Below are positions 3,263 through 25,558 of a stretch of DNA of 48,499 bases, piece after piece. Each line of letters opens with the position of its first letter. The first letter of the stretch is position 1. This DNA is from an uncultured virus (IMG/VR IMGVR_UViG_2061766007_001600) (lineage: Duplodnaviria; Heunggongvirae; Uroviricota; Caudoviricetes): IMG/VR virus record IMGVR_UViG_2061766007_001600; one strand, given 5' to 3'. The notes under the pieces were generated by a model, which saw only the letters and a program-made list of their open reading frames with translations, was not told the origin of the DNA and did not search any database. The position numbers and the translations under genes are program-made.

Positions 3263-3398
3263 CCGGAGCGTAGTTCAACGGCAGAACAGGCGGGTTGTGG
3301 GTAATTGATGGTGAAAATATAAATCCGTGCTTTGATAATATCTCCTTTCTATGTGATGATGTGTGTCGCCTATGTGGGTTCGAGTCCCACCGCTCCGG
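3263..3398 (+). ncRNA. tRNA-like RNA 1 with 72-nt insert replacing the anticodon loop
   Basis: CCGGAGCG/CGCTCCGG acceptor, TA, GTTC-AACGGCA-GAAC D arm, GGCGG/TCGCC stem, GTGGG-TTCGAGT-CCCAC T arm; no anticodon loop, no CCA. Confidence 0.8.
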
Positions 3399-3486
3399 AT
3401 TATGGGTTGTTTTGTTGTGGTAGCAACAGCCTATGATGCTGATATCCTTATNNNNNNNNNNNNNNNNNNNNNNNNNNNACCGCAAC

Positions 3487-3533
3487 AGTGTACCGCTCCT
3501 CCAATCGTGACCGATACAACGCAGCGGTACACT
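3487..3533 (+). ncRNA. 11-bp perfect hairpin with 25-nt loop starting CCTCC
   Basis: AGTGTACCGCT/AGCGGTACACT stem. Confidence 0.55.
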
Positions 3534-3535
3534 CA

Positions 3536-3617
3536 CAGGACGTAACTCAATGGGAGAGGTGTGTCGGCTGTAATGGTTGTAAGACACAAGATGCGGGTTC
3601 GAGTCCTGCCGTCCTGA
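3536..3617 (+). ncRNA. tRNA-like RNA 2 with 17-nt anticodon loop
   Basis: CAGGACG/CGTCCTG acceptor, ACTC-AATGGGA-GAGG D arm, GTGTC/GACAC stem, GCGGG-TTCGAGT-CCTGC T arm. Confidence 0.8.
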
Positions 3618-3866
3618 GTAGGGTCAGAGAGCAAATGACCACCGGACCCAGTGCAGAAAACGACTATTTTTCACCACTCAGATACTCTTGATCACAGTGC
3701 CTGATGGTGGATGAATCTTCGTGNNNNNNNNNNNNNNNNNNNCGAGAGTAAGCAGGCCAATACTGGTGGGATGTGCGGTTTGGGGTGAATCCAAAACCCT
3801 GTAAACAATGTTTATTCGCCACGCTTACAAAGCATGGTTGAAGCTTTTCTTACGAGAGTATGGTCT

Positions 3867-4710
3867 ATGTATATAAAGTCACCGTTGAACTACATAGGAG
3901 CGAAATATAAGCTTTTAGATCGAATTATCCCGATTCTCCCACAAGAGAGTAGATGCTTTGTAGATTTGTTCACAGGTGGCATGAACGTGGGAATAAATGT
4001 CAATGCAGATATAATATATGCTAATGATCATATTGATTATCTGATAGAGTTGTATGATTATTTCAAAAGAACTCCAACTGGCGATTTGAGAACAGCAATA
4101 AATGAGGTGATAAGCAATTATTCTCTGAACAAACAAAATGTTGATGGATATAGCCAGTTAAGACAAGACTATAATACGAATAAAAGCCCATTATTTCNNN
4201 NNNNNNNNNNNNNNNNNNNNNNNNNNNNNNNNNNNNNNNNNNNNNNNNNNNNNCTTTATGTTTAATATGCCGTTTGGAAGAAATAGGAGTAGCTACAATG
4301 CAAATATAGAAACAAACCTTATTCGCTTTTCTGCGGCACTCAAAGAAAAGAACGTAATCCTTAGCAGTTGCGATTTCAGATCCTTTGATTTTTCCAAAAT
4401 AGAGGTGGGCAGTGTCGTGTATTGCGATCCTCCTTACCTGATTTCAACCGGTTCGTACAATGATGGTAAAAGAGGGTTTGGTNNNNNNNNNNNNNNNNNN
4501 NNNNNNNNNNNNNNNNNNNNNNNNNNNNNNNNNNNNNNNNNNNNNNNNNNNNNNNNNNNNNNNNNNNNNNNNNNNNNNNCAAATGACGAACTAATTCGAT
4601 GGAGCGAAAAGTATAACGTAACATATGTTGATGCAGACTATTCAAACTGTGCATATAACAAAAAGGATAAAAAGGCAAAAAGCGTAGAAGTCCTTATCAC
4701 GAACTTCGCN
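3867..4710 (+). CDS. Dam/D12-class N6-adenine DNA methyltransferase (3' end in gap)
   Basis: KSPLNYIGAK, FVDLFTGG, FNMPFG, VYCDPPY, EVLITNF; visibly AT-richer than flanks. Confidence 0.88.
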
Positions 4711-4756
4711 NNNNNNNNNNNNNNNNNNNNNNNNNNNNNNNNNNNNNNNNNNNNNN

Positions 4757-4888
4757 CTATTATTCCGCATCTTTTGATCTGGCAAACAGTTCAATCTTCA
4801 TGCGAGTTTCGATGGCTTCCCGGATATAAGTGTTGACGCTAACTCCTGCGGCTGACGCAGCTTCCTGGATCTCAGCCCTCTTCCCTTT
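4757..4888 (-). CDS. Small ribbon-helix-helix-like DNA-binding protein (3' part; start in gap)
   Basis: Own translation: KGKRAEIQEAASAAGVSVNTYIREAIETRMKIELFARSKDAE*; resembles 19061-19297 and 48246-48443. Confidence 0.65.
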
Positions 4889-5098
4889 NNNNNNNNNNNN
4901 NNNNNNNNNNNNNNNNNNNNNNNNNNNNNNNNNNNNNNNNNNNNNNNNNNNNNNNNNNNNNNNNNNNNNNNNNNNNNNNNNNNNNNNNNNNNNNNNNNNN
5001 NNNNNNNNNNNNACTTTTTAGGTTGATATATTAGTGCAAATAGATTAAGATACTATTGTCAGGGAGATAGCAGTGCAGTAGGAAAGGGGGATTGAGCG

Positions 5099-5412
5099 AT
5101 GAGGAATTACAATCTTTCGATCATAATGACGAGAGCGTGGGAGAACTTCCGTAAACTGGGAATCAGCTTCTCTGAGGCACTTCACCGGTCATGGCTGACT
5201 GCTAAGGCATCTGAGGTGAATAGAGCCAGGATCGNNNNNNNNNNNNNNNNNNNNNNNNNNNNNNNNNNNNNNNNNNNNNNNNNNNNNNNNNNNNNNNNNN
5301 NNNNNGTTCAAAAGCCCTGTTCGGAGTGGATCTCATTTGGGGTTCTAAGGGGGATGGTGCTGTGTACAAGGCACGGTTCTTCGGAAGATCTCAGGTAGAA
5401 GCGATTGCCTGA
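5099..5412 (+). CDS. Small protein with ArdC-N-like motif, paralog of 19494
   Basis: MRNYNLSIIMTRAWENFRK...SKALFGVDLIWGSKGDGAVYKARFFGRSQV; near-identical to 19494 ORF. Confidence 0.6.
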
Positions 5413-5433
5413 ATCAGGTGAAAGGGGGATTGA

Positions 5434-5624
5434 AATGTTCGATATTATCTCTACGGTTGACGGCTTCGGAGNNNNNNNNNNNNNNNNNNNNNNNNNNNNN
5501 NNTGGGTGGGTATCTGAGCGGAGCGGAAGTGCTCATGGGAAATCAGGTTGACGCATACCGTGATGGATACAATACAGCAGAAGCGGTTATGTCCGGTCAG
5601 ATCCCTCAGATCCGTTATGAATAA
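5434..5624 (+). CDS. hypothetical protein, weak paralog of 19936-20175
   Basis: GYLSGAEVLMGNQVDAYRDGYNTAEAVMSGQIP vs GFLDGIDLLTGKPVDTYYHGLLAAKEVMTGEKP. Confidence 0.55.
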
Positions 5625-5745
5625 TTGTCAATCCGCACAAATTTACAAGATCATTTATGTGCGCTTTGACAGTTGAACATACATTGTAACAAGAGTATCA
5701 TATGTTTGTAAGTTTCATAAGAAATGTTTTAGGGAGGACATTGCT

Positions 5746-5991
5746 ATGACGAACACACAGATCATTTTAACTGAAATGCAGCTGCATGGTATCACAGAAG
5801 AAGTTCACACCTATGCCGTTTGGAAGAGCAAGGGGTATCAGGTGCAGAGAGGTCAGCATGCTCTGTTCACCACAAAGGTCTGGAAGAAGGTCCGGAAGAC
5901 CTCAAAGGATGGTGAAGAGTATGACAAGATGATCATGACGAATGCTGCGTTTTTTGGAGAGAGTCAGGTCGCCGAAATCGAGGTGGCATAA
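5746..5991 (+). CDS. Minimal ArdC-N-like (ssDNA-binding-type) protein
   Basis: HTYAVWKSKGYQVQRGQHA...FFGESQV matches the TYxxWxxxGxxVxxGxKA pattern; RBS GGAGG. Confidence 0.55.
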   Translation: MTNTQIILTEMQLHGITEEVHTYAVWKSKGYQVQRGQHALFTTKVWKKVRKTSKDGEEYDKMIMTNAAFFGESQVAEIEVA

Positions 5992-6104
5992 TTTTATGCC
6001 AAAAGAGCGCACATAGATGCGCTCTAAACGATCCAAAACGCCTCATATGGAGTTGTATCCGCCAGACAACTAATGATACATCACAGGATTCAAATCGATA
6101 TATG

Positions 6105-6310
6105 AATGTTCGGTGATGGCGGTAAGCCGATGGCGAGGTAGCGGCCAGAACTGCTTTACGGCTCAATTGCAACTGTCTTTATAGCGCATGTAATCAAGCG
6201 GAGTTAAGTCGTGACTCCAGGGAGGTGATGATCATATCCGATGGTAATCTCAGGCAGAGAAACAGGCGAAAAGCCACTCTGCTGGATTCATCGGAGTAGA
6301 GCACCTCAAG
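6105..6310 (+). ncRNA. Structured 5' leader/ncRNA upstream of cell-wall hydrolase
   Basis: Nested stems GAGGTG/CACCTC, TCCGATG/CATCGGA, GGCAGAG/CTCTGCT, GGC-GAAAA-GCC, GGAGT/ACTCC. Confidence 0.5.
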
Positions 6311-6336
6311 TACGGACTATATCAGGAGGAGTATAA

Positions 6337-6890
6337 ATGATAGCTACACCGATAATGATGGCGACATCATTGATTCTCGCACCGACAAGCCTGATGGAAA
6401 CATTTACTGTTGAGAAGCCGGTTTATGTACAGCCAGCTGTTGAAACAGAAGCAGAGATTTATGTACAGGCTGAAACAGAAACAGAGTCGATGGTGTTGGA
6501 AGAAACAGAGCCGGAAACAGAAGAGCCTGGAGTTCAGGATTATTCGATGGTTGAACCAGAGTCAGACCTGTGGCTGCNNNNNNNNNNNATTGCGACCGGA
6601 CCGAGATGGAGTACGTTGCGTCTGTTGTACTCAACCGGGTTGCAGATCCGAGATTCCCAAATACGGTCACAGAGGTCGTATATCAGCCTGGACAATACGG
6701 CTGCTTATCTGATGGTAACTGGTACAAGACACCGACTCAGGACAACTGGGAAGAAGCCGAGTACGTTTTGGACATGTTCAATGAGCATGGGTACACTGTT
6801 CTGCCGTCAGATGTTGTCTGGCAGGCACAATTCCCTCAGGGGCAAGGCACATATCTTGTTTCCTCATGGGGACATTATTACTGCTACTAA
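6337..6890 (+). CDS. Cell wall hydrolase (SleB/Hydrolase_2) with acidic N-terminal linker; frame break at N gap
   Basis: EMEYVASVVLNRVADPRFPNTVTEVVYQPGQY, GHYYC. Confidence 0.85.
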
Positions 6891-7186
6891 GCAACACTAC
6901 AATTAAACATATCTATTAAGGAAGAAAACGCTCAGCAGAAAGCCGTAGTGATCACACAAGTCACTNNNNNNNNNNNNNNNNNNNNNNNNNNNNNNNNNNN
7001 NNNNNNNNNNNNNNNNNNTTTTGGACGGAAGCTTGTTATTGCTCTTGCAGATTCCGGATCAGTCGAAAACGGTGTACAGGCTGTCGATGAGTTCGAGAGG
7101 TTCATTACAACGATGGACCAGCGAGGCTATATCGACCCTCTGTATGACGATGACGATGAAGATGATGATGACTTCGATGATGACAT

Positions 7187-7687
7187 GTGACCGGAGGTGA
7201 GATGATATTTTACAGATTCACCGGTGATAAAGAACTGAGACTGTTTCTGTGGGGCGAGATGGTCAGATGCAGCAGAAACAACGGCATATCATGTAACGAC
7301 TTCCTGTTCTTCGATGACTCAAAGCCAATTGAGAGTAGGATCGCTTACATGGTGGGAAAGGCAGACCTGAGCAATGTCGCAGAGTTCGAGGTGCTTAATC
7401 CGGGGAGGTTCGCTAAGAATGTTGGGGTTTACCAGAATCCGATGACATACGACAGCAATGTGCTGAGAAAAATGGGTATAGCGGAACTGTTCTATCTGAC
7501 AGCGAAAAAGGACAGTCCCACAGTCATGGTAAACGAATATCATGCCAGGATGTACTGCGATAAAGACCTGCGGCTGCTGAGGATAGGAACACCCGGCATG
7601 TTTGCCGGAGTCAGTTCAGGTGAATACATGGTTGTTTGGAAAGGGGTGAATGAGTGGAAAAGATCGAAAGAAAGATGCTTGCGGTGA
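7187..7687 (+). CDS. hypothetical phage protein
   Basis: ORF with GGAGGTG RBS in tightly packed operon. Confidence 0.55.
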   Translation: MTGGEMIFYRFTGDKELRLFLWGEMVRCSRNNGISCNDFLFFDDSKPIESRIAYMVGKADLSNVAEFEVLNPGRFAKNVGVYQNPMTYDSNVLRKMGIAELFYLTAKKDSPTVMVNEYHARMYCDKDLRLLRIGTPGMFAGVSSGEYMVVWKGVNEWKRSKERCLR

Positions 7688-8279
7688 TACTGCTGAGTTG
7701 CTCCGTATGCTTCCTTGTAGTGATTGGCTGGCATATATGGAAGACAACGAACACGGTCCGTGAAGAGCATATCCCGGTTGGGCAGACGATGGTTGTCATG
7801 AGCCGTGGGACGCTGCATCTCAGCGAACAGGAGTGTGCATACACGATAGTGGCTGATACCGATACGGCCAGGCGATACCTGATTATTGAGGACGCTGATA
7901 ACAAGATCCTGATCACAAGTCTTGAACTGCCTTATCACGAACACAATGGTGAGTGACATGAAAGCATTATTGAAGACGGAACTGTTCGGTCTTGTCGTAA
8001 CGCTGTTCGGTTGGGTGATCGAATCAAGAACGGTACAGCTTATAGGGGCATTGATGGTGATTGCCGTCACTGGGTACATCATCTATGAGCTGGATCAATT
8101 GGAACGCAGAAGGAAAAGGAAGGAACGGCATGGACGATATTTTAGGGATTCAGATGATCGCTCAGGACTGCATTAGAAAGGAAAAGGAGATGAGACTACT
8201 GGTTTTTCTTACTGCGGTAATCATGGCTGTAACAACACTGCTTTTTGCGACCGGGCTGGTCGAGATCGAAATAATGTAG
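7654..8279 (+). CDS. Three small membrane-anchored hypothetical proteins
   Basis: Overlapping ORFs 7654-7956, ~7958-8176, ~8190-8279, each with hydrophobic segments. Confidence 0.5.
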
Positions 8280-8292
8280 TCAGGGGGAACGC

Positions 8293-8640
8293 ATGGGCAA
8301 CAGGAAACAAAGACGACAACTGGCTAAGCTGGCTAAAAAGGGTGACAAATACATCGAGCAGCTTGCGGTCAATGCGGTTCAGCAAGAGATCGAAAAGAGC
8401 GCAAATATCCTTACTGATGACAACCTGGCACTGTCCACTGACTATACACTGAGTGCTATGATTCTCGCTATGGACAGGGTTATGGATTCTATCGATCAAC
8501 CGCTGTACGAGTGCATCCTGAACGAATTCCGGAACATCTATACGGATCTGATCACTTCCGGAGATCCGCAGTCTTATCTGTCCATGGCTGAGGAAGTATG
8601 CGGACATGAACTGCACATCGAGTTCGAGCATGAAGATTAG
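8293..8640 (+). CDS. hypothetical phage protein
   Basis: MGNRKQRRQLAK start typical of phage small ORFs; RBS. Confidence 0.6.
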   Translation: MGNRKQRRQLAKLAKKGDKYIEQLAVNAVQQEIEKSANILTDDNLALSTDYTLSAMILAMDRVMDSIDQPLYECILNEFRNIYTDLITSGDPQSYLSMAEEVCGHELHIEFEHED

Positions 8641-8709
8641 AGCGGTTATGTACAGCTGGTCTATTTTGCCCTATGAGCCTGTTGGCGGTAGTAAATGATA
8701 CTTATCTTA

Positions 8710-8738
8710 TTGAAACGCATTAAAGGGCGTAATATGCT
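8710..8738 (+). promoter_or_regulatory. sigma70-type promoter with CGCA-N6 operator in spacer
   Basis: TTGAAA-17-TATGCT; ACGCAttaaagGGCGT. Confidence 0.55.
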
Positions 8739-8956
8739 AAATAGAGCGCACAGGGGGCATGACATTGGTTATTCGTTTACTGATTTTTCTCATACTGGCA
8801 GTTCTCTCTACAGTCCGATGGGGAGCAGTGTACCTGATCGCAAGGTACTGGAAAAGACCGCATGACAGGGACCGGGCATTGTTCATGGGTATTTTCAGTG
8901 ATTGGATCATTCTGATCATTATCACCTACTTCATTTTGTAGTTCAGGAGAGCCGAG

Positions 8957-9279
8957 TTGAGAGAGTTCGTTGTAACGCAGGAGAATTTCCATAAAGAAGT
9001 CGAGAAAGCCAAAAAACCGGTGCTGCTTATCTTTTGGAAGCATGATGATATCCTGTGCCTGAAGCAGAGGATCGTTGCGTCAAGGTTAGCGTCTGTGCAT
9101 GATGAGTTTTCCGTTGGCAGCGTATGNNNNNNNNNNNNNNNNNNNNNNNNNNNNNNNNNNNNNNNNNNNNNNNNNNTCTGCCAGCCATCATTCTGATGAT
9201 GAGAGGGTCAGCGAGATGTGGCAAGTACAGATTCATGAGCGTACGTGAGATTGAGAAGATGATCTCGAAGTACATTTGA
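8957..9279 (+). CDS. Thioredoxin-like protein lacking CxxC
   Basis: VTQENFHKEVEKAKKPVLLIFW matches the Trx N-terminus; WKHDDILC replaces WAxWCGPC. Confidence 0.6.
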
Positions 9280-9557
9280 TGGTTGTTAGAGTTGTCTAAT
9301 CGCCTCGAAAGCAGTGCCTGGGTTCTGGAAACCGCATGGTTGAGGGAATTCCGGGGTATTGGAATTACAAAAGTGTGATATAATCATACGGTATATATAA
9401 AACAAAACTGCACTCACGCAAAACATACGTGATGCTATGTTTATTGAATGAGCGAAAATCTTACATTTGTAACGTCCGTTTCATGGTCGATAAACGCAGC
9501 AGACAAGNNNNNNNNNNNNNNNNNNNNNNNNNNNNNCAGAAAAGTGCGCTATCACTA

Positions 9558-9586
9558 TTGCATAACGCACTATCATGTGTTATCTT
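9558..9586 (+). promoter_or_regulatory. Promoter with operator driving a putative sRNA
   Basis: TTGCAT-17-TATCTT; ACGCActatcaTGTGT in spacer. Confidence 0.55.
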
Positions 9587-9590
9587 TTAA

Positions 9591-9783
9591 CTGATGAGCC
9601 GTTGGCTGATTACCATCCCCCTCCTGTCTCCCTACAGGATACAAGGTGTCGGCCACTCCCAACGGCTTATCGGTCCGGGGTGTTCTCAAACTCACCATAA
9701 CCGTTCGCCACAACGAGTATGGACTCTTTCTTGATACCGGACAAAAAAGCATCTCCGTTCAAGTGTTCGGAGATGCTTTTATT
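9591..9783 (+). ncRNA. Putative ~190-nt structured sRNA convergent with the recombinase gene
   Basis: GATGAGCCGTTGG/CCAACGGCTTATC and GTCCGG/CCGGAC stems between promoter and terminator. Confidence 0.5.
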
Positions 9784-9786
9784 TTA
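9743..9786. terminator. Bidirectional intrinsic terminator
   Basis: AAAAAAGCATCTCCG-loop-CGGAGATGCTTTT. Confidence 0.8.
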
Positions 9787-11693
9787 TGCGTCTGTTACTG
9801 TCATGGTAACAGGCTGCTTTTTTTATAGAGATCCGTCTTGTACACAANNNNNNNNNNNNNNNNNNNNNNNNNNNNNNNNNNNNNNNNNNNNNNNNNNNNN
9901 NNNNNNNNNNNNNNNNNNNNNNNNNNNNNNNNNNNNNNNNNNNNNNNNNNNNNNNNNNNNNNNNNNNNNNNNNNNNNNNNNNNNNNNNNNNNNNNNNNNN
10001 NNNNNNNNNNNNNNNNNNNNNNNNNNNNNNNNNNNNNNNNNNNNNNNNNNNNNNNNNNNNNNNNNNNNNNNNNNNNNNNNNNNNNNNNNNNNNNNNNNNN
10101 NNNNNNNNNNNNNNNNNNNNNNNNNNNNNNNNNNNNNNNNNNNNNNNNNNNNNNNNNNNNNNNNNNNNNNNNNNNNNNNNNNNNNNNNNNNNNNNNNNNN
10201 NNNNNNNNNNNNNNNNNNNNNNNNNNTTCATGGTGTCCAGCTTTTCCTGAAGTTCGGCTTCTCTGTTAATCAGTTCCTGACGCTGAAGAATGAAGTCTTT
10301 CTCGCTGATGGAGTCGTCTATCAGATACAGGGAGCGCAGCCGTTCAAGTGCTTTCTGTGTCTTCTCGATCTCCCGGCGAAGCCTGGTCAGTTCGGAATCA
10401 GGCTTCTTTGATGGTTGAAGCTTCAAAGAAGCACCGTAGATGTTTTCACTGACTTTGCCGGACTTCAGCACTGTGTATAAGTCTTTCAGCCCTGTTTCCT
10501 CAATATGGTCGATATAGTGGAACGTGCTTCCGATCAGCAGTCGATCCTGCAGTTCGAGGGGTGAGCCGATGGTGTCGATGCTGTTTTGGGCATTTATCAT
10601 GTTCAGGATGTAGCTAAAAACAATGTCACCGAGCACTGGGTCGCTTGTACTCTTAGCCTGACAATGGTCATAGCTTTTCAGGCGGGTAGGGCAGATGTAC
10701 CTGGTATATCTGAATCCGTCCTTTTTCTCACCGGAAGAGGAAACCCTGAGCAGATGGCCACAGCTGNNNNNNNNNNNNNNNNNNNNNNNNNNNNNNNNNN
10801 NNNNNNACTTTTCCTGTACTTCTGTCGGTCTATTCTTGTATTCTGATCCATTATCTGTAAGATCCGCTCTTTCTGCGACCGGGAGATGATAGAGGGGTGA
10901 TGGTCCGTAACAGTCACCCACNNNNNNNNNNNNNNNNNNNNNNNNNNNNNNNNNNNNNNNNNNNNNNNNNNNNTGTACTCATAATCGCCTGTATAAAAGC
11001 GGCTTCTGAGAATCAGACTCAGTGATACAGGATTCCACATCACTCCCGATCTTGTCGTCAGACCGTCATGGTTCATGTTCCTGGCGAGGTTAATGAGAGA
11101 TTTTCGATCTTCATACTCATCGTGGATTCTCCGTACGACAGCAGCCTCTTCCTCATTCACCGAGAACGTCATGGTGTCTGCGTCATAATCATATCCGTAC
11201 GGAATCCGGCNNNNNNNNNNNNNNNNNNNNNNNNNNNNNNNNNNNNNGATATCATGGTAGCAGTCACTCTTTCCGAGGTCATGTTCCGCTCCAACTCAGC
11301 GAATACCAGGATGATCTTGAGCATCGCCTCTCCCATGGCGGTAGACGTATCAAACTGCTCAGACCGGGAGACAAAAGTGACTCCCAGCTGCTTTAATTCT
11401 GCGTACATGGTTGCGAAATCAAGGAGATTACGGCTGATCCGGTCGATCTTCCAGACGAGCAAGTGTGTATAAGCACCTGTGCGCAGCATGGTCATCATAC
11501 GCTGAAACTCAGGACGGTCAGTGTTCTTGCCTGAGTATCCGGCATCCTCAAAGACTGTGTATTCCCTGGCATGCAGAATCAGGTCTGCATAGGATATCAG
11601 GTCTTTCCTTTGCATGGGAAGGGAATCTTTGTCGATTTGGTGGACGGTCGAGACCCGGCAGTAGATTGCGACCCTGTTCTCCGTTTGCTGCAT
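9779..11693 (-). CDS. Large serine recombinase (phage integrase); frame breaks at gaps, 3' end approximate
   Basis: AIYCRVST, DAGYSGKNTDRPEFQ, KIDRISRNLLD, FAELER; recombinase domain, Zn ribbon (CGH..YIC..C), coiled coil. Confidence 0.93.
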
Positions 11694-11737
11694 TGCTTTA
11701 TCCTTCTCACTGTGCTTATATCAACGACCGTATTGCG

Positions 11738-12075
11738 TTAGCTTGTCATGGTAGCGGCATATGCGTCTGACAGCCCCTTCACATAGGACAAAGCGGTCGC
11801 CTGGAGTTCAGGCGGAAGAGATCGGAAAGACAAGAGCATGGACAATTCCGAGGTATTCTCTGCTCTACGTTCATCGTTCTTATTGAAGTCTTCACCGGTC
11901 AGGATGTAGTCGATTGAGCGGTTGAAGAATTTGGAAATGACGAGAAGCATCTCACCAGAGGGCATACCACCGTGCTGCCACCTGGAGATGTTGCCTGTGC
12001 TTATCCCCATTTTTTTCATGGCTGTGGTAGGGGTGAGTCCCTTCTCGTTGCNNNNNNNNNNAATTTTGAAGTCAT
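11738..12075 (-). CDS. CI-like XRE repressor
   Basis: HTH GISTGNISRWQHGGMPS...SIDYILTG; GGAGGA RBS before ATG at 12075; divergent from cro. Confidence 0.85.
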
Positions 12076-12097
12076 GGCAATCCTCCCAAAAATAAGT

Positions 12098-12151
12098 GCG
12101 CACTATTGTGCACTTTAAACAGTTGACAGACGCACCTCAGTGAGATACTCT
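12098..12151. promoter_or_regulatory. Lysis/lysogeny switch: rightward promoter with two operators
   Basis: TTGACA-17-TACTCT; GCGCActattgTGCAC and ACGCAcctcagTGAGA. Confidence 0.7.
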
Positions 12152-15949: not shown

Positions 15950-15990
15950 TGGTGTTTTGAACAGACATCGAGATCACAGAGGGGAAGGAA

Positions 15991-16767: not shown

Positions 16768-16951
16768 AGAGTGACAACCGTAATTCTGACAATGGTCATG
16801 GTGGCTCTTTTGATAGCACTGTTGTGTTCTAATGACGAAGGGAGCAGGTCAATAGGACTGTCGATTGCGTTCTGCGTCACGCTGGTACTGATGGTTGGAT
16901 ACGAAATCTGGAACACTATGTTACCGATGTTAAAAGTTTAAGGAGGGCGAT

Positions 16952-17846
16952 ATGGAAGAATTGAACTTGGTAATTAGGCAGCCGGAAGAGGGGAAGTTCC
17001 TGACTCACATCACATGGAACAAAGACGAACTCAAAGCGTACATCGAGAAAAAGGTAGCGGACTACCAAANNNNNNNNNNNNNNNNNNNNNNNNAGAAGGA
17101 CCGGGCAGACCTCAACAAGCTGAAGAAGCAGATCTCCGACCGAAGGATCGAGGTCAAGAAAGCGGTCATGGCTCCGTATACCGAATTCGAAACCGATGTG
17201 AAAGAGGTCCTGGAACTGATCGAGCAGCCAATCAATCAGATTGACGCACAGATCAAGGCGTATGAGAGCGACCAAAAAGAGGGCCGGAAACAGGCTCTTT
17301 TCAATCACTACATGACATACAGCGATGAGTTCCAGTCGATGGTGCCTTTCAAGTCGATGCTGAGCGAGAAGATGCTGTTGGCTTCAAAATCTGAGAAGNN
17401 NNNNNNNNNNNNNNNNNNATCGTGCATCAGCAGATCGAAACAGACCTGATGACAATCGACATGGGTCTTGAGGAGAGAGACCGGGAATATGCGAAGCAGA
17501 GATACCTGAGTTGCTTCGATGTGGGTCGTGTTTTCGCAGAGATGCGGCAGATCATGGACAGGCGGAAAGCAGAAGAAGACCGGAAAGCTGCACAGGCCGC
17601 TCAGGAAGCCCANNNNNNNNNNNNNNNNNNNNNNNNNNNNNNNNNNNNNNNNNNNNNNNNNNNNNNNNNNNNNNNNNNNNNNNNNNNNNNNNNNNNNNNN
17701 NNNNNNNNNNNNNNNNNNNNNNNNNNNNNNNNNAAGTCTATGTCACCCACTTCACCTGCTACGGAACGAAAGCCCAGCTTTACGCACTGAGGGATTTCAT
17801 GGTGCAGAACGGCATCCGTTTCGAGCGGATCGCAAATGCATCATAA
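16952..17846 (+). CDS. DUF1351-like coiled-coil phage protein
   Basis: WNKDELK, RADLNKLKKQISDRRIEVKK..PY.EFE; C-terminal QLYALRDFM..NGI. Confidence 0.75.
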
Positions 17847-17859
17847 AGGGGGAGAGGAT

Positions 17860-18325
17860 ATGTGGGTTAAGGCAATACCGCCGAAGTGCATGCGTGACAA
17901 ATTCGGAATGTATAAACGTGACACCTGGCATGGCGAAATGGACAGATGCTGGATAGACAATGATGCGAACATATGCGTCACTTCCAGACTCATACGGACG
18001 AAGTTCGGCAATGTCGAGCACGTTGCGATTACAAGGGGCGGAATGACAGCCGATGGCAGCGGAGNNNNNNNNNNNNNNNNNNNNNNNNNNNNNNNNNAAT
18101 GAACTGTTCGGTGAGAACCGTTTTGCAATCGAGGTGTTCCCGAAGCAGAAGAATCTGGTCGATGTGATGGACGTATACCACCTGTGGGTTTTCGACAAGA
18201 AGCTTGAGATGCCGTTCGGTATCGCACCAAAAGAGATTAAACCGGCTGTAAACCGTGGGTATCAGTTCACGGAAGAAGATATGAAAGTAATGGCCGAAGA
18301 TTACAAGAGGACAGGCAAACTCTGA
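17860..18325 (+). CDS. conserved hypothetical phage protein
   Basis: ELFGENRFAIEVFPKQKNLVD..YHLWV. Confidence 0.6.
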
Positions 18326-18336
18326 ATGGTGGCGAT

Positions 18337-18943
18337 ATGGGGAAGAACATGCAACGAACGGTAACGTTCACGGAACAGCAGCTGAAAGAGTACCAGACAC
18401 AGAGTCTTGCGACAGCGATGGCTGTGTGCCTGGACTATCACGAAAAGCTGAGGCAGAAGGAAATCCGGGAATTCCCAAAGCGGATACTGCATAACACAAA
18501 GCTGCTCCTCCGCAAATACCGAAGCTTCAAGACGATGGCTGATCATGCAATTTATGCTCCTGAAGACACAAAGGACGAGGAGATACGGAAGATCATAGAC
18601 CTGATGGGCAACAAAAGCAGGGAGGATCTGAGGATACGCAGTATTCAGAAGAATGCGATAACGACCAAAACGATCATGGCTCATGTTGACAGGGCATTAT
18701 TTGAGTTCCGGATTGACTGCGAGATCTACGCAAAGACAGGGCAACCTGACTGGCTGAGGAGATACAGGGTGATTGATGGTCTGTATATTCAGTTTCCACC
18801 NNNNNNNNNNNNNNNNNNNNNNAGAGCACGTGAGCGAGAGATCCGTATTCAGGGACAGGGATGCTGCATGTGATAAGTTATCCGGATACCTGTGGGGTGT
18901 GGCAAGCCTGAGGGGATTCCTGATGGCAGAAACATGTCAATAA
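18337..18943 (+). CDS. RinA/ArpU-like late transcription activator
   Basis: NTKLLLRKYR, RRYRVIDGLY; C-terminal HTH HVSERSVFRDRDAACDKLSGYLWG after gap. Confidence 0.7.
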
Positions 18944-18978
18944 ACAATAGGCAAAGCATAATAACAAGACACAGAAAA

Positions 18979-19012
18979 GACCGCTCACGTCACAGTTTGA
19001 GCGGTCATTATT
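18979..19012. terminator. Terminator hairpin between convergent genes
   Basis: GACCGCTCA/TGAGCGGTC. Confidence 0.65.
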
Positions 19013-19060
19013 TACTACTTATTTACAGGATTAACCGTATATAGGCAACACCTTCTATGT

Positions 19061-19282
19061 CTATTCTCTATCGCTGGCAGTCAAGTCATTCTTCATGGTT
19101 TCATTAAACGCACGAATAGCAAACTGGTTGAGACTCTCACCGCAGCTTTTTGCATGGTCTTGATATTTCTTTTTATCCCCTTTCGGAACACGTATGCGAA
19201 GGTCGTCCACCTTTTCTCGCATGTACTTTTGAATAGCCTTTTTCTGCGCATCTGTGTATCTGGTCTTATTTCGCTCTACCAT
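19061..19282 (-). CDS. Ribbon-helix-helix-like DNA-binding protein
   Basis: AQKKAIQKYMREKVDDLRIRVPKG...GESLNQFAIRAFNETM. Confidence 0.75.
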   Translation of the reverse strand: MVERNKTRYTDAQKKAIQKYMREKVDDLRIRVPKGDKKKYQDHAKSCGESLNQFAIRAFNETMKNDLTASDRE

Positions 19283-19493
19283 GACATTCCCTTTCAAGTG
19301 TGCATAAACAATGTAACAGAATATTCAAAACCCTTATACTACAAGGATTTTACCAGTTTGAATTATATGGGTACATAGACAATGTTACCAAAATAAAGTT
19401 GTCAAATATGTGCATATCGTCAATTGTAATCTATGAGAATATAGATTAAGATGTCATTGTCAGGAGACAACAAGAACAGAAAGGAGGAGAACA

Positions 19494-19810
19494 ATGAGGA
19501 GATTCAATCTTTCAGAGATCATGACCAAAGCGTGGGAGAACTTCCGCAAAATGGAAATCAGCTTCCCAGAGGCACTTCACAGATCATGGCTGACAGAAAA
19601 GGCTTCTGACGTGAATAAAGCCAGGATTGAAGCAGCGAAAGCAGCGGCTGGCATCACTGAAGAAACAGCTACGTGGTACGACTGGAAGAAAGCCGGGTAC
19701 GAAGTGGTTCATGGGTCGAAAGCCCTTTTCGGAGCGGATCTGATTTGGGGAGCAAGAGGCGATGGTGCTGTGTACAAGGCAAGATTTTTCNNNNNNNNNN
19801 NNNNNNNNNN
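19494..19810 (+). CDS. Small protein with ArdC-N-like motif (stop in gap)
   Basis: TWYDWKKAGYEVVHGSKALF...YKARFF; AGGAGG RBS. Confidence 0.6.
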
Positions 19811-19935
19811 NNNNNNNNNNNNNNNCTGTCAGAGTGGCACCTCTGACAGGAGCGATCCCTCCACGAGGGACCGAAACTCGGTACGGTCATTATAACACGT
19901 GATCCGTACCCACACAAGAGAAAGGAAGTGTGGAT

Positions 19936-20175
19936 ATGACAAAAAAGAACAGAGCGAGGACAGACCTGTATGATAAGTATCTTGAACAGTACAGCGAACT
20001 GAAAGCAGAGAGCAAGGCAGGATTTGATGAATACTCAAAGGCATCGTATATCAACGGATTTCTTGATGGTATAGATCTTCTGACCGGAAAGCCGGTGGAT
20101 ACATATTATCATGGTCTTCTTGCAGCAAAGGAAGTTATGACCGGAGAAAAACCGACCCTTCATCTCAGATTGTAA
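19936..20175 (+). CDS. hypothetical protein
   Basis: ORF with RBS; paralog of 5434-5624. Confidence 0.55.
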   Translation: MTKKNRARTDLYDKYLEQYSELKAESKAGFDEYSKASYINGFLDGIDLLTGKPVDTYYHGLLAAKEVMTGEKPTLHLRL

Positions 20176-20229
20176 AATGTCAGTCTGTGAGTACACAAAT
20201 GTGCGTGGTTGAGGGATTCCATGGTGTTA

Positions 20230-20395
20230 AAACGTGTCAGAAAACTGTCATTGTGCAGGCAAAAATACCGGGGTATCATTATAGACGTGATCACTCGGCT
20301 GACCGTTGTGGAGGAGCACCACCCGGTTGCAGCTGCTGAGAGCAATTCTTCCTTATTGGAGCGGTAGAGATACCGCTCCTTTTACTGTGCATAAA
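20230..20395 (+). promoter_or_regulatory. Putative late promoter (TGTCA repeats), structured leader and terminator
   Basis: TGTCAgaaaacTGTCA; GGAGCGGTA-GAGA-TACCGCTCC-TTTT hairpin. Confidence 0.5.
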
Positions 20396-20409
20396 AAGCG
20401 GAGGTGGAC

Positions 20410-21622
20410 ATGGAGAAGAAACTGAACCTGGAACTAAACATGCAGAAAATCGAGATATCGAAGCTGAAGCCTGCCGGGTATAACCCACGTAAGAGACTTC
20501 AGCCAGGTGACAAAGACTATGAAGATATCAAAAACAGCTTCTATGAGTTCGGATATATCGATCCGATCATAGTCAACAAGGACATGACAATCATCAGTGG
20601 GCATCANNNNNNNNNNNNNNNNNNNNNNNNNNNNNNNNNNNNNNNNNNNNNNNNNNNNNNNNNNNNNNNNNNNNNNNNNNNNNNNNNNNNNNNNNNNNNN
20701 NNNNNNNNNNNNNNNNNNNNNNNNNNNNNNNNNNNNNNNNNNNNNNNNNNNNNNNNNNNNNNNNNNNNNNNNNNNNNNNNNNNNNNNNNNNNNNNNNNNN
20801 NNNNNNNNNNNNNNNNNNNNNNNNNNNNNNNNNNNNNNNNNNNNNNNNNNNNNNNNNNNNNNNNNNNNNNNNNNNNNNNNNNNNNNNNNNNNNNNNNNNN
20901 NNNNNNNNNNNNNNNNNNNNNNNNNNNNNNNNNNNNNNNNNNNNNNNNNNNNNNNNNNNNNNNNNNNNNNNNNNNNNNNNNNNNNNNNNNNNNNNNNNNN
21001 NNNNNNNNNNNNNNNNNNNNNNNNNNNNNNNNNNNNNNNNNNNNNNNNNNNNNNNNNNNNNNNNNNNNNNNNNNNNNNNNNNNNNNNNNNNNNNNNNNNN
21101 NNNNNNNNNNNNNNNNNNNNNNNNNNNNNNNNNNNNNNNNNNNNNNNNNNNNNNNNNNNNNNNNNNNNNNNNNNNNNNNNNNNNNNNNNNNNNNNNNNNN
21201 NNNNNNNNNNNNNNNNNNNNNNNNNNNNNNNNNNNNNNNNNNNNNNNNNNNNNNNNNNNNNNNNNNNNNNNNNNNNNNNNNNNNNNNNNNNNNNNNNNNN
21301 NNNNNNNNNNNNTCCGTAACTCATCACAGGAGAATGGTATCGTCCTGGACCTGTTCGGAGGGTCCGGAACAACACTGATTGCGTCTGAACAGCTAAACAG
21401 GACAGCAAACGTCATGGAGATCGATCCAGGCTTCGCTTCCACGATTGTCAGACGGTATACCGCATATAAACAGGGAACGAGTGATATCAGGGTGATCCGG
21501 TATGGTAAGACCCTGGACTGCCCGNNNNNNNNNNNNNNNATTTCCAATATAAGGAAGCGTCAGTGGATGATGTTCAGAGCAGCGCATTCGGAGAAGTAGA
21601 TTTCGAAGAGCCTGAACAGTGA
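20410..21622 (+). CDS. ParB-N domain + N4/N6 DNA methyltransferase (middle in gap)
   Basis: LKPAGYNPRK..FGYIDPIIVN..IISGH; C-terminal IVLDLFGGSGTTLIASEQLNR..MEIDP. Confidence 0.85.
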
Positions 21623-21841
21623 TATTTATGTCCGGAGAACGTGCAAAAGTGCGCTAAAATAATCATAAAAGCATATTCTACCTGTGCATATTGAACATAT
21701 AACGCACTATAATGCGTAATTATGCACAAGCGCAGAAGCACATATTTGTGCATTTTTACAGTGTACACTGCGCTTGTTAAAGCGTATAAATAGATGTAGG
21801 GAGAGGTGGCAGTGAGATAAAGCTTTTGGGAGGGCTTAAAA

Positions 21842-22779
21842 ATGAAAAACAGAAACGAATTCATCGAGCGCATGAAAAAGCAGACAATCGGTGTCGAGGT
21901 TGAGATGTACAACATCACTCGTCCTGCGGCGGCAAAGGCAGTTGCTGAGTTCTTCGGAACGTATCAGGGTGAATGGTCAATCGGACATGAGTGTCATCTG
22001 GACACCTACTACTGCAAGGACACTCAGGGCAGGAAGTGGAAGTTCGCAAGTGACTCCTCTATCAGAGCGAGAAGCACCAGAACACAGTGCGAGTTGAACA
22101 CACCGGTTCTTCTGTACGAAGACATTCNNNNNNNNNNNNNNNNNNNNNNNNNNNNNNNNNNNNNNNNNNNNNNNNNNNNNNNATTCATGTGGGTGCGGAT
22201 ATTGGGAAGCCGAATGGACACACAGCGCAGTCCCTCAGGAATCTTGCGAATCTCATGAAAGCGCACGAAGAGATTCTGATCGAGTCCACCGGTCTTGCGT
22301 TCGAGAGGCTGAGATGGTGCAACACCAGTAGCGATGCTNNNNNNNNNNNNNNNNNNNNNCACTGGAAGACCTGAAAAGGATCTGGTATGCGTCTCATGGC
22401 AGTGGTGAGTATGGTTGCCTACATCATTATGATCACTCAAGATACCACATGCTGAATCTGCATGCACTCTTTCAGGAGAATGGTCACGGAACGGTCGAGT
22501 TCAGACTGTTTCAGTTCGACAATCCTGAGGGCGGTCGGAACGGTAAAAAGAACGGAATTCACGCCGGAATGATCAAGGCTTACATGCAGTTGGTTCTGGC
22601 AATGAGTCAGTACGCTAAGGAAATCCGCTACGCAACACCGAATTCAAATGACGACAGCAACCACAAGTACGCAATGCGGTGTTGGCTTCTGAGGCTTGGG
22701 TTCATCGGAGNNNNNNNNNNNNNNNNNNNNNNNNNGTCTGAGCGGTGATGCGGCACGTAGCGGAAGACACGCTGCCTGA
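21842..22779 (+). CDS. Putative amidoligase (COOH-NH2 ligase) family
   Basis: TIGVEVEM, WKFASDSSI, ELNTP, IHVG, LNLH, GTVEFRLF, MRCWLLRLGFIG. Confidence 0.88.
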
Positions 22780-22842
22780 TGTAGTAGAAGAGCACACAGA
22801 GCCGTTTAGGACGGCTCTGTGGCATAGGAAGGGGGGATCAAA

Positions 22843-23109
22843 ATGTATAACAGGGAACTTTACAAGCGAGGGGAAAAGGATTTGATAGAGCAGGTCCTGA
22901 AAAAGACCGGTGAGGTTGCCACTCGATATCTCGACAGTGCGGATAAGCTGATTGACGAAGAGATAGAGGAGATGGCATGGGAAGCGGAAAATGACCCTTA
23001 CTACTGGAGTGGAAGCGAGGCGATGGCTTACTTCTGCCTGTGTGAGGAGCGTGGTGTCGGAACGGCGGAAGAATGGCTGCGCATGTATCGTGAAATGAAA
23101 TCAGCATAA
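22843..23109 (+). CDS. hypothetical protein
   Basis: ORF between amidoligase and GGCT. Confidence 0.6.
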   Translation: MYNRELYKRGEKDLIEQVLKKTGEVATRYLDSADKLIDEEIEEMAWEAENDPYYWSGSEAMAYFCLCEERGVGTAEEWLRMYREMKSA

Positions 23110-23131
23110 GGAATAGGGAGGAAGAATTGCT

Positions 23132-23683
23132 ATGGCGAAGAGAAGAGTAAAAGACACAGATCGGTACTATCTGGCATACGGATCAAACCTGTCCGTTGAT
23201 CAGATGCTCTACAGGTGTCCTGATGCGGTCTATGTAGGGTACACGTACATCAAGGACTATGAGCTGCTGTTCAAGGGTTCGCAGACCGGATCATACCTGA
23301 CGATTGAGAAAAAGGACGGTGCAGTAGTGCCGGTGCTCGTATGGAAGATCAGTAAGGCAGATGAGAAGAATCTGGACAGGTACGAGGGATGCCCGCACTT
23401 CTACTACAAGAAGATGATGAAGGTGAAGGTCTACAACTTCCTGACACACAGACCAGGCAAAGAGGTCGATGCGATGGTGTACATCATGCATGAGGAAAGA
23501 CGACTGGGAGTGCCGAGCGGATCATACTACAGCGTCTGCAAAGAGGGTTATGACCGGTTCGGATTCGATGAATGCCACCTGATAAAGGCACTGGCGAATT
23601 CGGTCGGAGATAAAAGAGCGGATCATCTCAGTGAATACTGGGGCAAAAACTATGGTCTGAACAGGGTATCAGGCTGGCGGTAA
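23132..23683 (+). CDS. Gamma-glutamylcyclotransferase (AIG2-like)
   Basis: YLAYGSNL, QMLYRCP, LDRYEG, GY..FGFD. Confidence 0.9.
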   Translation: MAKRRVKDTDRYYLAYGSNLSVDQMLYRCPDAVYVGYTYIKDYELLFKGSQTGSYLTIEKKDGAVVPVLVWKISKADEKNLDRYEGCPHFYYKKMMKVKVYNFLTHRPGKEVDAMVYIMHEERRLGVPSGSYYSVCKEGYDRFGFDECHLIKALANSVGDKRADHLSEYWGKNYGLNRVSGWR

Positions 23684-23697
23684 AGGAAGGAGGGAAC

Positions 23698-24114
23698 ATG
23701 AGGGAACAGACAGAGATATCAGAAGAGTATACGGAGATTGCGGCAGATGTGATCAAAGAGAATGAGGATCTTTCATGGTTACAGGAAGCCGATGTGACAA
23801 TCGGCTACATNNNNNNNNNNNNNNNNAGCGGAAAGCCGGTGTGTGCGGACTGCCGGAAGATCCCGGACAGGGATAAGAGGTTCATACCATTCGATTTCAT
23901 TATAACGGTCTACGATCCGAATGTATGTGGGTTCTCAGATGAGCAGATGAAGATCCTGCTGTATCACGAATTGCTGCATGTGGGAGTTGATCAGAAAGAC
24001 GATGGTTCGCTGAAACTGTACATCGTTCCGCATGACATTGAGGACTTTTCAGCGGTGATTGATAAGTACGGAGAAACCTGGGCAGAGAATGATGGAGCAG
24101 ATGACGATATTTGA
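23698..24114 (+). CDS. Putative phage metallopeptidase
   Basis: ILLYHELLH, IVPHDIEDF..VIDKYG. Confidence 0.8.
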   Translation: MREQTEISEEYTEIAADVIKENEDLSWLQEADVTIGYXXXXXXSGKPVCADCRKIPDRDKRFIPFDFIITVYDPNVCGFSDEQMKILLYHELLHVGVDQKDDGSLKLYIVPHDIEDFSAVIDKYGETWAENDGADDDI

Positions 24115-25432
24115 TTATATGTCTACGAAGTCAGTGTGTGATGGCTGCGTGTTTCACATAGAGGGAGCATGCAGTCATATCTCCGGTGCTGACTTTGGCT
24201 GTATTAAAGGCAGTTTCAAGATACGGAAGTCTAAGGCGAAGTGTCCGGAATGCGGTTGCATGGTTGAAGTTAGACAGGCCAGGCTGGGCAGTGATTACGC
24301 AATCTGCCGCAGATGCAAGAAACAGATTGAATTCAAGAATAAGGGAAACAGGAAAACAGCTTTTGAAATGTGGAAAGAATCAGCAAGAGTTTAAGGAGGA
24401 TAGCATGGTTGTAACGATTAGCACCGATAACAAGAACAGTTTCAATTTCGATTTGAAGCAGAGCGAGGTGGTGTTCCTCTTGAATTATGCNNNNNNNNNN
24501 NNNNNNNNNNNNNNNNNNNNATCAGAGTTTCAGGCCGGAGAAGACAGCAGAAGAGCAGCCTGATGGTTATGTCTCTGAGAGGCGGAAGTATAAGGGCTTT
24601 ATGTTGATCAAGTGCCAGGAGTGTGGTGAGACAAAGGGATTCTGCGCAAAGAGTCCTATTGATAGCTATATCTGCAATTCATGCGGTGAGAGGACACCGC
24701 TTTCCAACCTGAGGACACTGTATCAGGACTGCGATTTCTGCAATCACCATTCAAAATATCTGACGAATCTGACAGATGAAACCGTTACTCATAAGTGCAT
24801 TAGCTGTGAGCAGGAAACTACGATGGTGCTGAACAGCCGGAGGACCGCATACGNNNNNNNNNNNGTCCGCATCATGCCGTATAGATCGGGATACAGGAGG
24901 AACATCGTATGACGTACAAAGTGACGCTCACTGAGAAGCAGATGAGAGTGACACAGGCCGCACTTGAGGAGTTTTTCAGGCTGAGAATGGGGCAGTCTTT
25001 TGACTTTTGCGATGACATGGCAAAGAGTGACACAGATCTGTCGAATGATAATCCGGAGCATGAAAGACTGTTTGCCAAATTTATTGAACGCAGAGATGCG
25101 CTGCAACAGGTCATGAAAGCCTTTTTTGGTATCGCATTTCCTCTTGGATACCTGAGTGCAAAGACAGATGACATGATGGTTGCAGAGTGCATATGGNNNN
25201 NNNNNNNNNNNNNNNNNNNNGGGTGCAATCACTGGGGATCAGCAATGCAGATAGGCAGTGAACCGTCACCGAAGATAGAGGGAGAAGACTGATGGATGTA
25301 GAGAAGATTGTAAGCGAGATCATTCTGTTTGGACTTGGCATCGTTGTGAGCACCGGAACGATTCTGATTGCACGATGGATCAAAGAAGTTTTCCAGGAAG
25401 ATGCGGAAATAGAAGAGATCTCAGCAGAATAA
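24088..25432 (+). CDS. Run of small hypothetical proteins, two Cys-rich (Zn-ribbon)
   Basis: Packed ORFs with repeated CxxC (CPECG, CQECG, CNSCG, CDFC). Confidence 0.55.
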
Positions 25433-25438
25433 GACAGA

Positions 25439-25558
25439 CCGGACGTAGTTCAATCATGGTAGAACATCAAACCCTAACAAGTTGTCAGACCTATTTTTTC
25501 ACCTCCTGATTCAAAGAAAAATGCTTATGAGATGTGGGTTCGAGTCCCACCGTCCGGG
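25439..25558 (+). ncRNA. tRNA-like RNA 3 with ~55-nt insert replacing the anticodon loop
   Basis: CCGGACG/CGTCCGG acceptor, GTTC-AATCATGGTA-GAAC D arm, TCA/TGA short stem, T arm identical to RNA 1. Confidence 0.8.

Follow-up and report, generated by a model that had tools for sequence, protein, structure and literature searches.

Can a gene that keeps the body of a transfer RNA (tRNA) without its decoding loop be a working part of a phage genome? This question is raised by three elements, here called E1, E2, and E3 (Table 1), in the uncultured virus of IMG/VR record IMGVR_UViG_2061766007_001600 (Caudoviricetes), of which a stretch of 48,499 nucleotides (nt), referred to as the window, was analyzed. 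An earlier note on this DNA had described the three as tRNA scaffolds carrying inserts in place of the anticodon loop and had proposed that the inserts act as antisense guides. The anatomy of E1, E2, and E3 indicates that they are probably selected, non-decoding tRNA mimics of a temperate phage.

In a search of the window against Rfam at E<=5, the three elements were the sole tRNA matches, and no other meaningful family match was obtained. All of them pass the tRNA model RF00005 (gathering score, 29 bits) over its full length (model positions 1-71), and each match skips part of the anticodon region, which bears out the notion of a tRNA chassis with its anticodon side replaced. E1 has a fully paired acceptor stem of 8 base pairs (bp; CCGGAGCG/CGCTCCGG), a D stem of GTTC/GAAC, and the T arm GTGGG-TTCGAGT-CCCAC; its minimum free energy (MFE) fold retains all three arms, while the stem GGCGG/TCGCC encloses a loop of 72 nt. 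E2 has a 7-bp acceptor (CAGGACG/CGTCCTG), a D stem with one A.G mismatch, and a T stem with one G.U pair, and its stem GTGTC/GACAC encloses a loop of 17 nt (3566-3582) that consists of two units resembling each other, GGCTGTAAT and GGTTGTAA. E3 combines a 7-bp acceptor (CCGGACG/CGTCCGG) with D and T arms identical to those of E1; it lacks any anticodon stem, and 67 nt separate its D and T arms. T8-A9, A14, GG, and the T-loop TTCGAGT are common to E1, E2, and E3, all of which begin with a C1-G72 pair.

Thus, model scores and sequence agree with the earlier description of an acceptor stem, U8-A9, D arm, and T arm in all three elements, of 72- and 17-nt loops in the anticodon place of E1 and E2, and of CCA being encoded by none. 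The insert of E3, formerly put at about 55 nt, had to be corrected to the 67 nt between the D and T arms. The acceptor stems, said to be different in each element, proved to be those of close paralogues, and the inserts are not wholly unrelated to one another, as GTTGT is common to all three.

A usable anticodon arm, with a 5-bp stem, a 7-nt loop, U33, and a readable anticodon, is absent from E1, E2, and E3. Because other sequence replaces the decoding loop, the elements cannot read codons. Plain ARAGORN found E2 only, as an unconvincing tRNA-Leu(taa) with a poor stem, and no transfer-messenger RNA (tmRNA). When introns were allowed, it forced the identities His(gtg), Tyr(gta), and Arg(cct) on E1, E2, and E3, respectively, with poor stems and with the inserts at three differing non-canonical positions (38/39, 29/30, and 33/34).

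Relatives of E3 were found in IMG/VR. A scan with RF00005 of 50 contigs encoding homologues of the anti-repressor Ant gave 40 hits, 4 of which spanned 96-150 nt. One of these four, an E3-type relative of 150 nt, was present in 12 IMG/VR loci, representing 10 distinct variants, on phage contigs of ~43-134 kilobases (kb; the complete ones, 100-134 kb), and it always stood apart from the contigs' tRNA cluster. E3 shares with these relatives the T arm, a similar acceptor, the motif TTTT-NN-ACCTCC, CTTAT before the T arm, and a TTGTA trailer. Across the 10 variants, the body (~53 nt) showed a single substitution, located in the T loop, and the 97-nt insert showed four substitutions and two insertions or deletions; the flanks had 3 changes in 33 nt upstream and ~9 in 60 nt downstream. 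The C-rich run of the insert recurs in all 10.

To evaluate the helices, we aligned E1 and E3 with five of the E3-type IMG/VR variants, leaving E2 out. In the acceptor, D, and T helices, all 112 of 112 cells were standard pairs, and 7 of the 16 pairs were changed on both sides. None of 500 shuffles reached the observed level of pairing, and slid controls paired at 55% or less. This complete pairing together with the doubly changed pairs argues that the tRNA body has been kept by selection, as the earlier note had suspected from the paired acceptor stems. Decaying stems, which the note had associated with pseudo-tRNAs, were not seen, since every helix pairs in E1, E3, and the five relatives.

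Insert-bearing elements of this kind are not limited to E3 and its relatives. A second recurrent element of ~104 nt was found in eight phage contigs of ~42-60 kb (L178-L184 and L129), where it ends the contigs' tRNA cluster and scores 22.5-28.2 bits, below the Rfam threshold. Its acceptor is kept through G.U pairs and compensatory changes, and its insert holds the C-rich run CCCC(T)TCC. Conserved single-copy elements thus recur in several phage groups, with 12 E3-type and 8 second-type loci. In addition, a 187-kb metagenome contig carries, behind two normal tRNAs, a 58-nt tRNA-like element (L091:1468-1525) with acceptor, D, and T arms and no anticodon arm; its T arm is identical and its acceptor similar (C1-G72). 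Because this arm-less relative still scores 47.7 bits, the anticodon arm is dispensable for such elements.

Several further tRNA-like genes with unusual layouts came to light. Two phage genes (L128, G040 25166-25261; L132, G049 27296-27379) combine 7-bp anticodon stems with enlarged loops, a C-rich one of 26 nt and one of 15 nt. In L144 and L153 (near 384-459), an acceptor stem and a T arm are linked by a conserved TCTCCTC...GTAGAAAG hairpin region; the copies score 31.6 and 31.8 bits as tRNA, respectively, and the L144 element adjoins normal tRNAs. In two Crocosphaera metagenome-assembled genomes (MAGs; L094:1501-1606, minus strand, and L095), a tRNA-Arg(UCU)-like gene has ~45 additional nt separating its D arm from an anticodon arm that is intact. 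A giant-virus MAG fragment (L003:1501-1611) carries a tRNA-type gene whose anticodon region is interrupted by an insert, with a similar neighbor behind it. Three loci with ACCTCC near a T arm (L161, L163, and L171) were rejected as not tRNA-like (Rfam, E<=0.1), and their number is about that expected by chance on a rough estimate.

The selected-mimic reading has to be weighed first against decay. E1, E2, and E3 might be pseudo-tRNAs, that is, phage tRNA genes broken in the anticodon region by duplication, illegitimate recombination, or small insertions, with C-rich runs that are chance or leftover sequence. E3 lacks an anticodon stem, the inserts are AT-rich and show no structure, the E2 loop resembles a tandem duplication, and stretches of E1 and E2 match each other out of register (direct repeats at 71-86%), all of which would fit such an origin. 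So would the failure to find close relatives of E1 and E2 in the phage collection, IMG/VR, the metagenome contigs, or the genome contigs. A blastn search of 50,697 phage records with E1 and E3 plus their flanks and with the E3-type relative gave no match. Pattern scans also returned nothing close: in IMG/VR, three hits for the E1/E3 type, none related (two adjacent tRNAs, an unclear one, and a giant-virus intron tRNA); two for the 3' half (a normal tRNA-Pro and one unclear); six in metagenome contigs, none a close relative; and, in genome contigs, none and then two cyanobacterial ones. No tRNA adjoined the gene in 80 loci around Ant homologues, and the genes next to E3 had zero and one relatives, without a tRNA.

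A comparison of strains bears on the same question. The segment 2225-3800 is colinear in contigs of four other runs from four studies, and colinearity ends near 3800, which suggests that ant, E1, and E2 move as one module. In this comparison, the changes listed are the better supported ones; 68 less-supported changes exist besides. E1 and E2 with their inserts are colinear in all four runs, with no joint and no insert-less form. E1 shows one change among those listed, 3395 C>T, which turns a G-C pair into G.U; hypervariable inserts, as formerly expected, are therefore not found between strains. E2 in runs X3 and X4 has one D-loop insertion (+T) and five substitutions among the changes listed: two in the first loop unit (3570 G>A and 3572 A>G), 3559 G>A, 3595 G>A, which improves a T-stem pair from G.U to A-U, and 3615 T>C.

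Some of these data count against selection on the tRNA body. The change at 3615 creates an A.C mismatch in the E2 acceptor, as decay would predict. The change rate of E2 is about half that of the spacer (5/82 versus 13/110), a difference that is not significant. E1 may look conserved through recency, all runs being nearly identical over 2568-3394, and the covariation covers three lineages only. On the other side stand the 112 of 112 paired cells with seven doubly changed pairs, the better conservation of the E3-type body than of its flanks, the retention of three such elements by a compact phage, and the presence in other phage groups of a conserved insert-bearing tRNA-like element of their own, one per genome. 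Decay seems to us an unlikely explanation.

What, then, do the inserts contribute to the predicted mimics? The runs that the earlier note had likened to an anti-Shine-Dalgarno (anti-SD) sequence lie where it had placed them, CTCCTTTCTA at 3342-3351 in E1 and TCACCTCCT at 25499-25507 in E3. Such words are rare on this strand, with 18 copies of CTCCT as compared to 80 of AGGAG, and the probability that both long inserts hold CTCCT by chance is ~5e-4 (calculated post hoc for two random segments of the inserts' lengths). In E1, E3, and the E3-type relatives, CTCC stands 25-28 nt before the T stem. The E3 run is predicted in the loop of a weak A/U hairpin (a 16-nt loop with the insert only, a 17-nt loop in the whole-element MFE fold), and single-sequence MFE folds of 10 of 10 E3-type variants give an A/U hairpin that has ACCUCCC in the 5' part of its apical loop. 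Anti-SD-like runs are present in E1, E3, and all 10 E3-type variants; E2 has none. No Rfam family was matched by the inserts at E<=5, and a possible extra copy of the E3 motif spotted by eye at 3662-3682 was discarded, as it was not recovered at <=3 mismatches.

All three elements are on the coding strand and follow stop codons at a distance of 6-10 nt: that of the anti-repressor gene ant is 10 nt 5' of E1, and that of a 46-codon open reading frame (ORF) is 6 nt before E3. No promoter- or terminator-like site beyond chance was found at E1, E2, or E3. This arrangement fits release by RNase P and RNase Z. We tentatively favor, at somewhat less than even odds, an account in which E1, E2, and E3 are RNase P/Z-processed, non-decoding tRNA mimics, of which E1 and E3 carry a general SD-binding run. 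The elements would be transcribed within the polycistronic RNA of the phage together with the upstream genes; host RNase P would cut the 5' end and RNase Z the 3' end, and the tRNA body would stabilize the excised RNA. The working part of E1 and E3 would be the insert, whose C-rich run is complementary to the SD sequences used by the phage and could for this reason block or titrate ribosome-binding sites (RBSs) generally by pairing with them, as opposed to a single selected target. E2 may be only a processing signal. The anti-SD mechanism of the E1 and E3 inserts, taken by itself, is doubtful. More speculative still is the full biological version, in which gut Bacillota phages would make natural tRNA-chassis RNAs whose anticodon arm has been swapped for a copy of the anti-SD tail, and these, once processed by RNase P/Z, would rival 16S ribosomal RNA (rRNA) for SD sites or tail-recognizing proteins and so reset the choice of messages translated during the lysis-lysogeny decision; E1 and E2 do adjoin the anti-repressor gene.

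Several observations weigh against this account. E2 lacks the run, and the E1 and E3 inserts fold no better than their shuffles (z scores of +0.92 and +1.32, respectively), so that the E3 hairpin is unstable. RNAalifold predicted no pairs for the E3-type hairpin in E3 and four variants, and the hairpin therefore carries little weight; the CUCC run of E1 is predicted within a weak stem and not in a loop. The motif statistics are post hoc, the match of the runs to the 16S 3' tail of the host is presumed from bacteria in general, and the transcription, ends, and stability of the elements are all predicted from sequence.

Target predictions weigh on the same side. Best duplexes of the inserts with 141 start regions in the window were compared with those of shuffled inserts and did not surpass them: -34.4 versus -32.2 +/- 2.3 for E1, -17.0 versus -15.2 +/- 2.2 for E2, and -32.4 versus -29.0 +/- 2.8 for E3. 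Complementary 16-mers matched generic RBSs only, with two non-self hits each versus 0.6-0.7 expected. The E1 insert paired with the ant start region at -33.1 (shuffles, -24.7 +/- 3.7; 4 of 200 as good); however, this candidate fails correction for ~15 tests and is not the best of the 141 sites. Thus, pairing within the window gave no support to the idea of guides aimed at particular genes.

A rather improbable alternative to a working insert is that the tRNA body is the whole function, marking RNase P/Z cuts and guarding the 3' ends of upstream messages in the manner of t-elements, with the inserts as filler. The location of the elements immediately after stop codons, where promoter- and terminator-like sites do not exceed chance, the absence of any motif from E2, and the arm-less 58-nt relative would all suit such punctuation, as would the spacer that E1 and E2 flank. 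This spacer contains two predicted hairpins (A and B, Table 1). Hairpin B (MFE of -20.1 kcal/mol) has a z score of -4.72, with 0 of 200 shuffles as good, and one compensatory change in runs X3, X4, and X5 (3496 C>T with 3524 G>A) replaces one C-G pair of its stem with U-A. In hairpin A, four of the five changes listed in other runs preserve pairing and one disrupts it. RNase P acting at E2 and RNase Z at E1 would release this structured 136-nt spacer. In the window allele, a third CCUCC opens the loop of hairpin B (3498-3502), which might have extended the anti-SD theme; its loss from runs X3-X5 (3498 C>T and 3502 C>A) counts against that. Punctuation, however, leaves unexplained why ACCUCC is kept in 10 of 10 E3-type variants, why a strand-rare word occurs in both long inserts, and why inserts of 55-100 nt persist when an arm-less form suffices.

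Alternatively, the elements could be decoys or sponges for host factors that grip the tRNA body, such as anti-phage anticodon nucleases, with a loop that would not be productively cut. We consider this quite unlikely. The elbow and acceptor are intact and the anticodon loop is abolished, as a decoy would require, and phage tRNAs that neutralize tRNA-cutting defenses are known (PMC11464382 and PMC13096335). All three loops hold U-G-U-N words (TTGTGGG, TTGTAAG, and TTGTCAG) like those of His/Tyr/Asp-type anticodon loops, and ARAGORN with introns allowed reads E1 and E2 as His and Tyr. GTTGT has 6 of its 44 copies in the window in or beside E1, E2, and E3, and GGGTTGT words stand in the 3' trailers of E1 (3406-3418) and E3 (25558-25564). 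Yet the significance of the shared 5-mer (~4e-5) becomes borderline when multiplied by the 1024 possible words, the E3-type relatives do not conserve TTGT (6 of 10 variants have TAGTA in place of TTGTA), and no defense or counter-defense gene is linked.

Very unlikely, in our view, is that E1, E2, and E3 are intron-bearing tRNA genes whose inserts are removed from the RNA by some route, leaving working tRNAs. Group I introns are ~200 nt or more and have a group I core, and protein-spliced (bulge-helix-bulge) tRNA introns usually sit at 37/38, leave a proper anticodon arm, and need a splicing endonuclease and a ligase. The inserts, in contrast, show no group I or other non-tRNA Rfam match at E<=5 and, at 17-72 nt, are far below group I size; the insert sites that ARAGORN proposes are inconsistent and their stems poor, and no clean excision would give E3 or its relatives an anticodon stem. 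In favor of introns, phage tRNA genes with inserts are on record (Devoto et al. 2019, PMC6784885), and E1 and E2 do have a 5-bp stem around the insert with a canonical-looking G-U-UGU-R-R at one loop edge. The 73 ORFs of this partial, masked genome yielded no RNA ligase or splicing endonuclease.

Finally, it is hardly credible that the C-rich runs are the RBSs of small opposite-strand genes, with the tRNA-like transcript as a cis-antisense partner in the manner of type I toxin-antitoxin pairs: the complement of the E3-type run does read as a strong RBS, GGGAGGT, then 5 nt, ATG, and a 46-codon ORF with a hydrophobic N terminus, with three polymorphisms synonymous (third position) and the stop codon kept. 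However, two further changes are non-synonymous, the ORF belongs to no PHROG family, and in the window neither a canonical start nor an open frame follows the complementary runs of E1 and E3, with stops coming at once in E3. Two of the 10 relatives lack the ATG through a deletion and yet retain ACCUCC, so that the motif is better conserved than the ORF. This minus-strand ORF could encode a small membrane peptide for which the tRNA-like RNA would be the antisense partner.

Table 1. Coordinates of E1, E2, E3, and other features; positions refer to the window unless a locus is named.
Feature	Position	Strand	Evidence or remark
E1, tRNA-like gene	3263-3398	+	RF00005, 38.6 bits over 3264-3398; 74 nt of anticodon region skipped
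E1 insert	3294-3365	+	72 nt, 36% GC, begins GTTGTGG
Hairpin A	3400-3436	+	Directly 3' of E1; MFE -13.8 kcal/mol, z -1.85, 11/200 shuffles as good
Hairpin B	3487-3533	+	Directly 5' of E2; 11-bp perfect stem, 25-nt loop
E2, tRNA-like gene	3536-3617	+	RF00005, 41.8 bits; 19 nt of anticodon region skipped
E3, tRNA-like gene	25439-25558	+	RF00005, 42.0 bits; 61 nt of anticodon region skipped
E3 insert	25467-25533	+	67 nt, 34% GC
Opposite-strand 46-codon ORF of E3-type relatives	L126:299-439	-	Same place in L159-L177
53-codon ORF	2316-2477	+	Own RBS; overlaps ant start in another frame
Anti-repressor (ant), Bro-N + KilAC/ANT	2335-3252	+	PHROG phrog_130, E 3.6e-75; Pfam ANT, Bro-N
Large serine integrase	9779-11693	-	PHROG/Pfam
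Amidoligase_2 + GGACT (gamma-glutamyl cyclotransferase-like) + phage metallopeptidase cluster	21842-24114	+	
46-codon ORF with one hydrophobic stretch	25292-25432	+	Upstream of E3
IS110-family transposase gene	33083-34393	+	
IS3-family (rve) transposase gene	35572-36762	-	
dATP/dGTP diphosphohydrolase N-domain gene	38849-39184		

The genomic setting is that of a temperate phage or prophage. PHROG and Pfam scans of the window revealed a gene set typical of Bacillota phages, with nearly all genes on the plus strand. Besides the integrase and anti-repressor, these scans identified replication and recombination genes, including those for RecT, a replisome organizer, and RusA; late genes, including those for terminase, a Mu-type portal, F protein, and a CHAP lysin; and several DNA methyltransferases. 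The segment 2225-4197 occurs in 24 runs, none of them of RNA, labeled as bovine, sheep, and other gut metagenomes. The 53-codon ORF at the start of ant resembles the small leader ORF upstream of ant in the immunity operon of phage P1, and the ORF upstream of E3 matched no PHROG or Pfam family. The window carries 84 masked runs of N, one of which (3452-3478) lies between E1 and E2. The terminase and portal regions (39958-44829) are broken into overlapping ORFs in different frames, and this splitting may stem from N masks or from frameshift errors in assembly. Stop-codon recoding was considered and rejected, with code 11 kept: reassignment of TAG or TAA gives no clearly longer frames, and the gain in frame length under reassignment of TGA is due to the abundance of TGA in all frames. 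The IS110 and IS3 (rve) transposase genes adjoin each other inside the phage, upstream of the packaging genes.

Standard tRNA finders overlook genes of the type of E1, E2, and E3 or wrongly label them as Leu, His, or Arg tRNAs. With canonical tRNA (RF00005), the three share the acceptor, D, and T arms and the bases of the tertiary contacts; they differ from it on the anticodon side, where a 7-nt loop on a 5-bp stem gives way to the long loops of E1 and E2 and to the stemless insert of E3. Searched against Rfam at E<=5, the window gave no match to the tmRNA, YrlA/Y-RNA, or C4 antisense families.

The P1 C4 and P4 CI antisense RNAs are phage regulators that RNase P matures from the transcript of an operon. 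C4 regulates an anti-repressor operon through defined targets within that operon, and its fold falls short of a full cloverleaf. E1 and E2 resemble C4 in adjoining an anti-repressor gene, but E1, E2, and E3 keep the acceptor, D, and T arms of the cloverleaf. In t-elements and mascRNA, decoding-free tRNA-shaped modules recruit RNase P and RNase Z to longer transcripts. Our elements likewise have a non-decoding tRNA shape and a predicted processing by these enzymes. These modules have been described in organelles, archaea, and mammals, and we know of no description there of their use by phages or of an insert at the anticodon position.

Bacillota small RNAs of the RsaE/RoxS and RNAIII type pair with SD sequences through C-rich loops; they are transcribed from promoters of their own, end at their own terminators, and act on known targets. 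E3 and its relatives are predicted by single-sequence folds to resemble them in a C-rich run in the unpaired loop of an A/U hairpin; unlike them, E1, E2, and E3 have their inserts within a tRNA body and show no promoter or terminator signals beyond chance. If the proposed mechanism is true, tRNA mimics that present a mimic of the ribosomal tail would offer a simple, general means of influencing translation in host and phage. The layout of YrlA is permuted, its ends forming a Ro-binding stem. E1, E2, and E3, in contrast, are in normal tRNA order. YrlA-type Y RNAs, which occur in bacteria and phages, are noncoding and mimic tRNA (Chen et al. 2014, PMC4201824), and a survey of candidate structured viral RNAs treats tRNA-like candidates in general terms only (PMC10690425). 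In the full-text literature searched, supplements aside, no description of tRNA bodies with anti-SD inserts was found.

The closest printed case that we have seen is that of the Lak megaphages, whose tRNA genes contain enigmatic, unexplained introns (Devoto et al. 2019, PMC6784885). They are, like E1, E2, and E3, phage tRNA-type genes with short, non-group-I inserts in the anticodon region; removal of the insert from the Lak genes yields a recognizable tRNA with an anticodon, whereas E3 does not yield one and E1 and E2 do so doubtfully. Our elements further differ in belonging to a small, temperate phage and in the anti-SD-like run of the E1 and E3 inserts. Engineered tRNA scaffolds hold a foreign RNA as a closed stem in the anticodon arm and gain from it tRNA-like processing and stability. 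E1, E2, and E3 are natural, and their anticodon stem is absent (E3) or 5 bp long (E1 and E2); if they are made and processed as we propose, phages would have arrived by nature at the trick by which engineers stabilize RNA in a tRNA scaffold.

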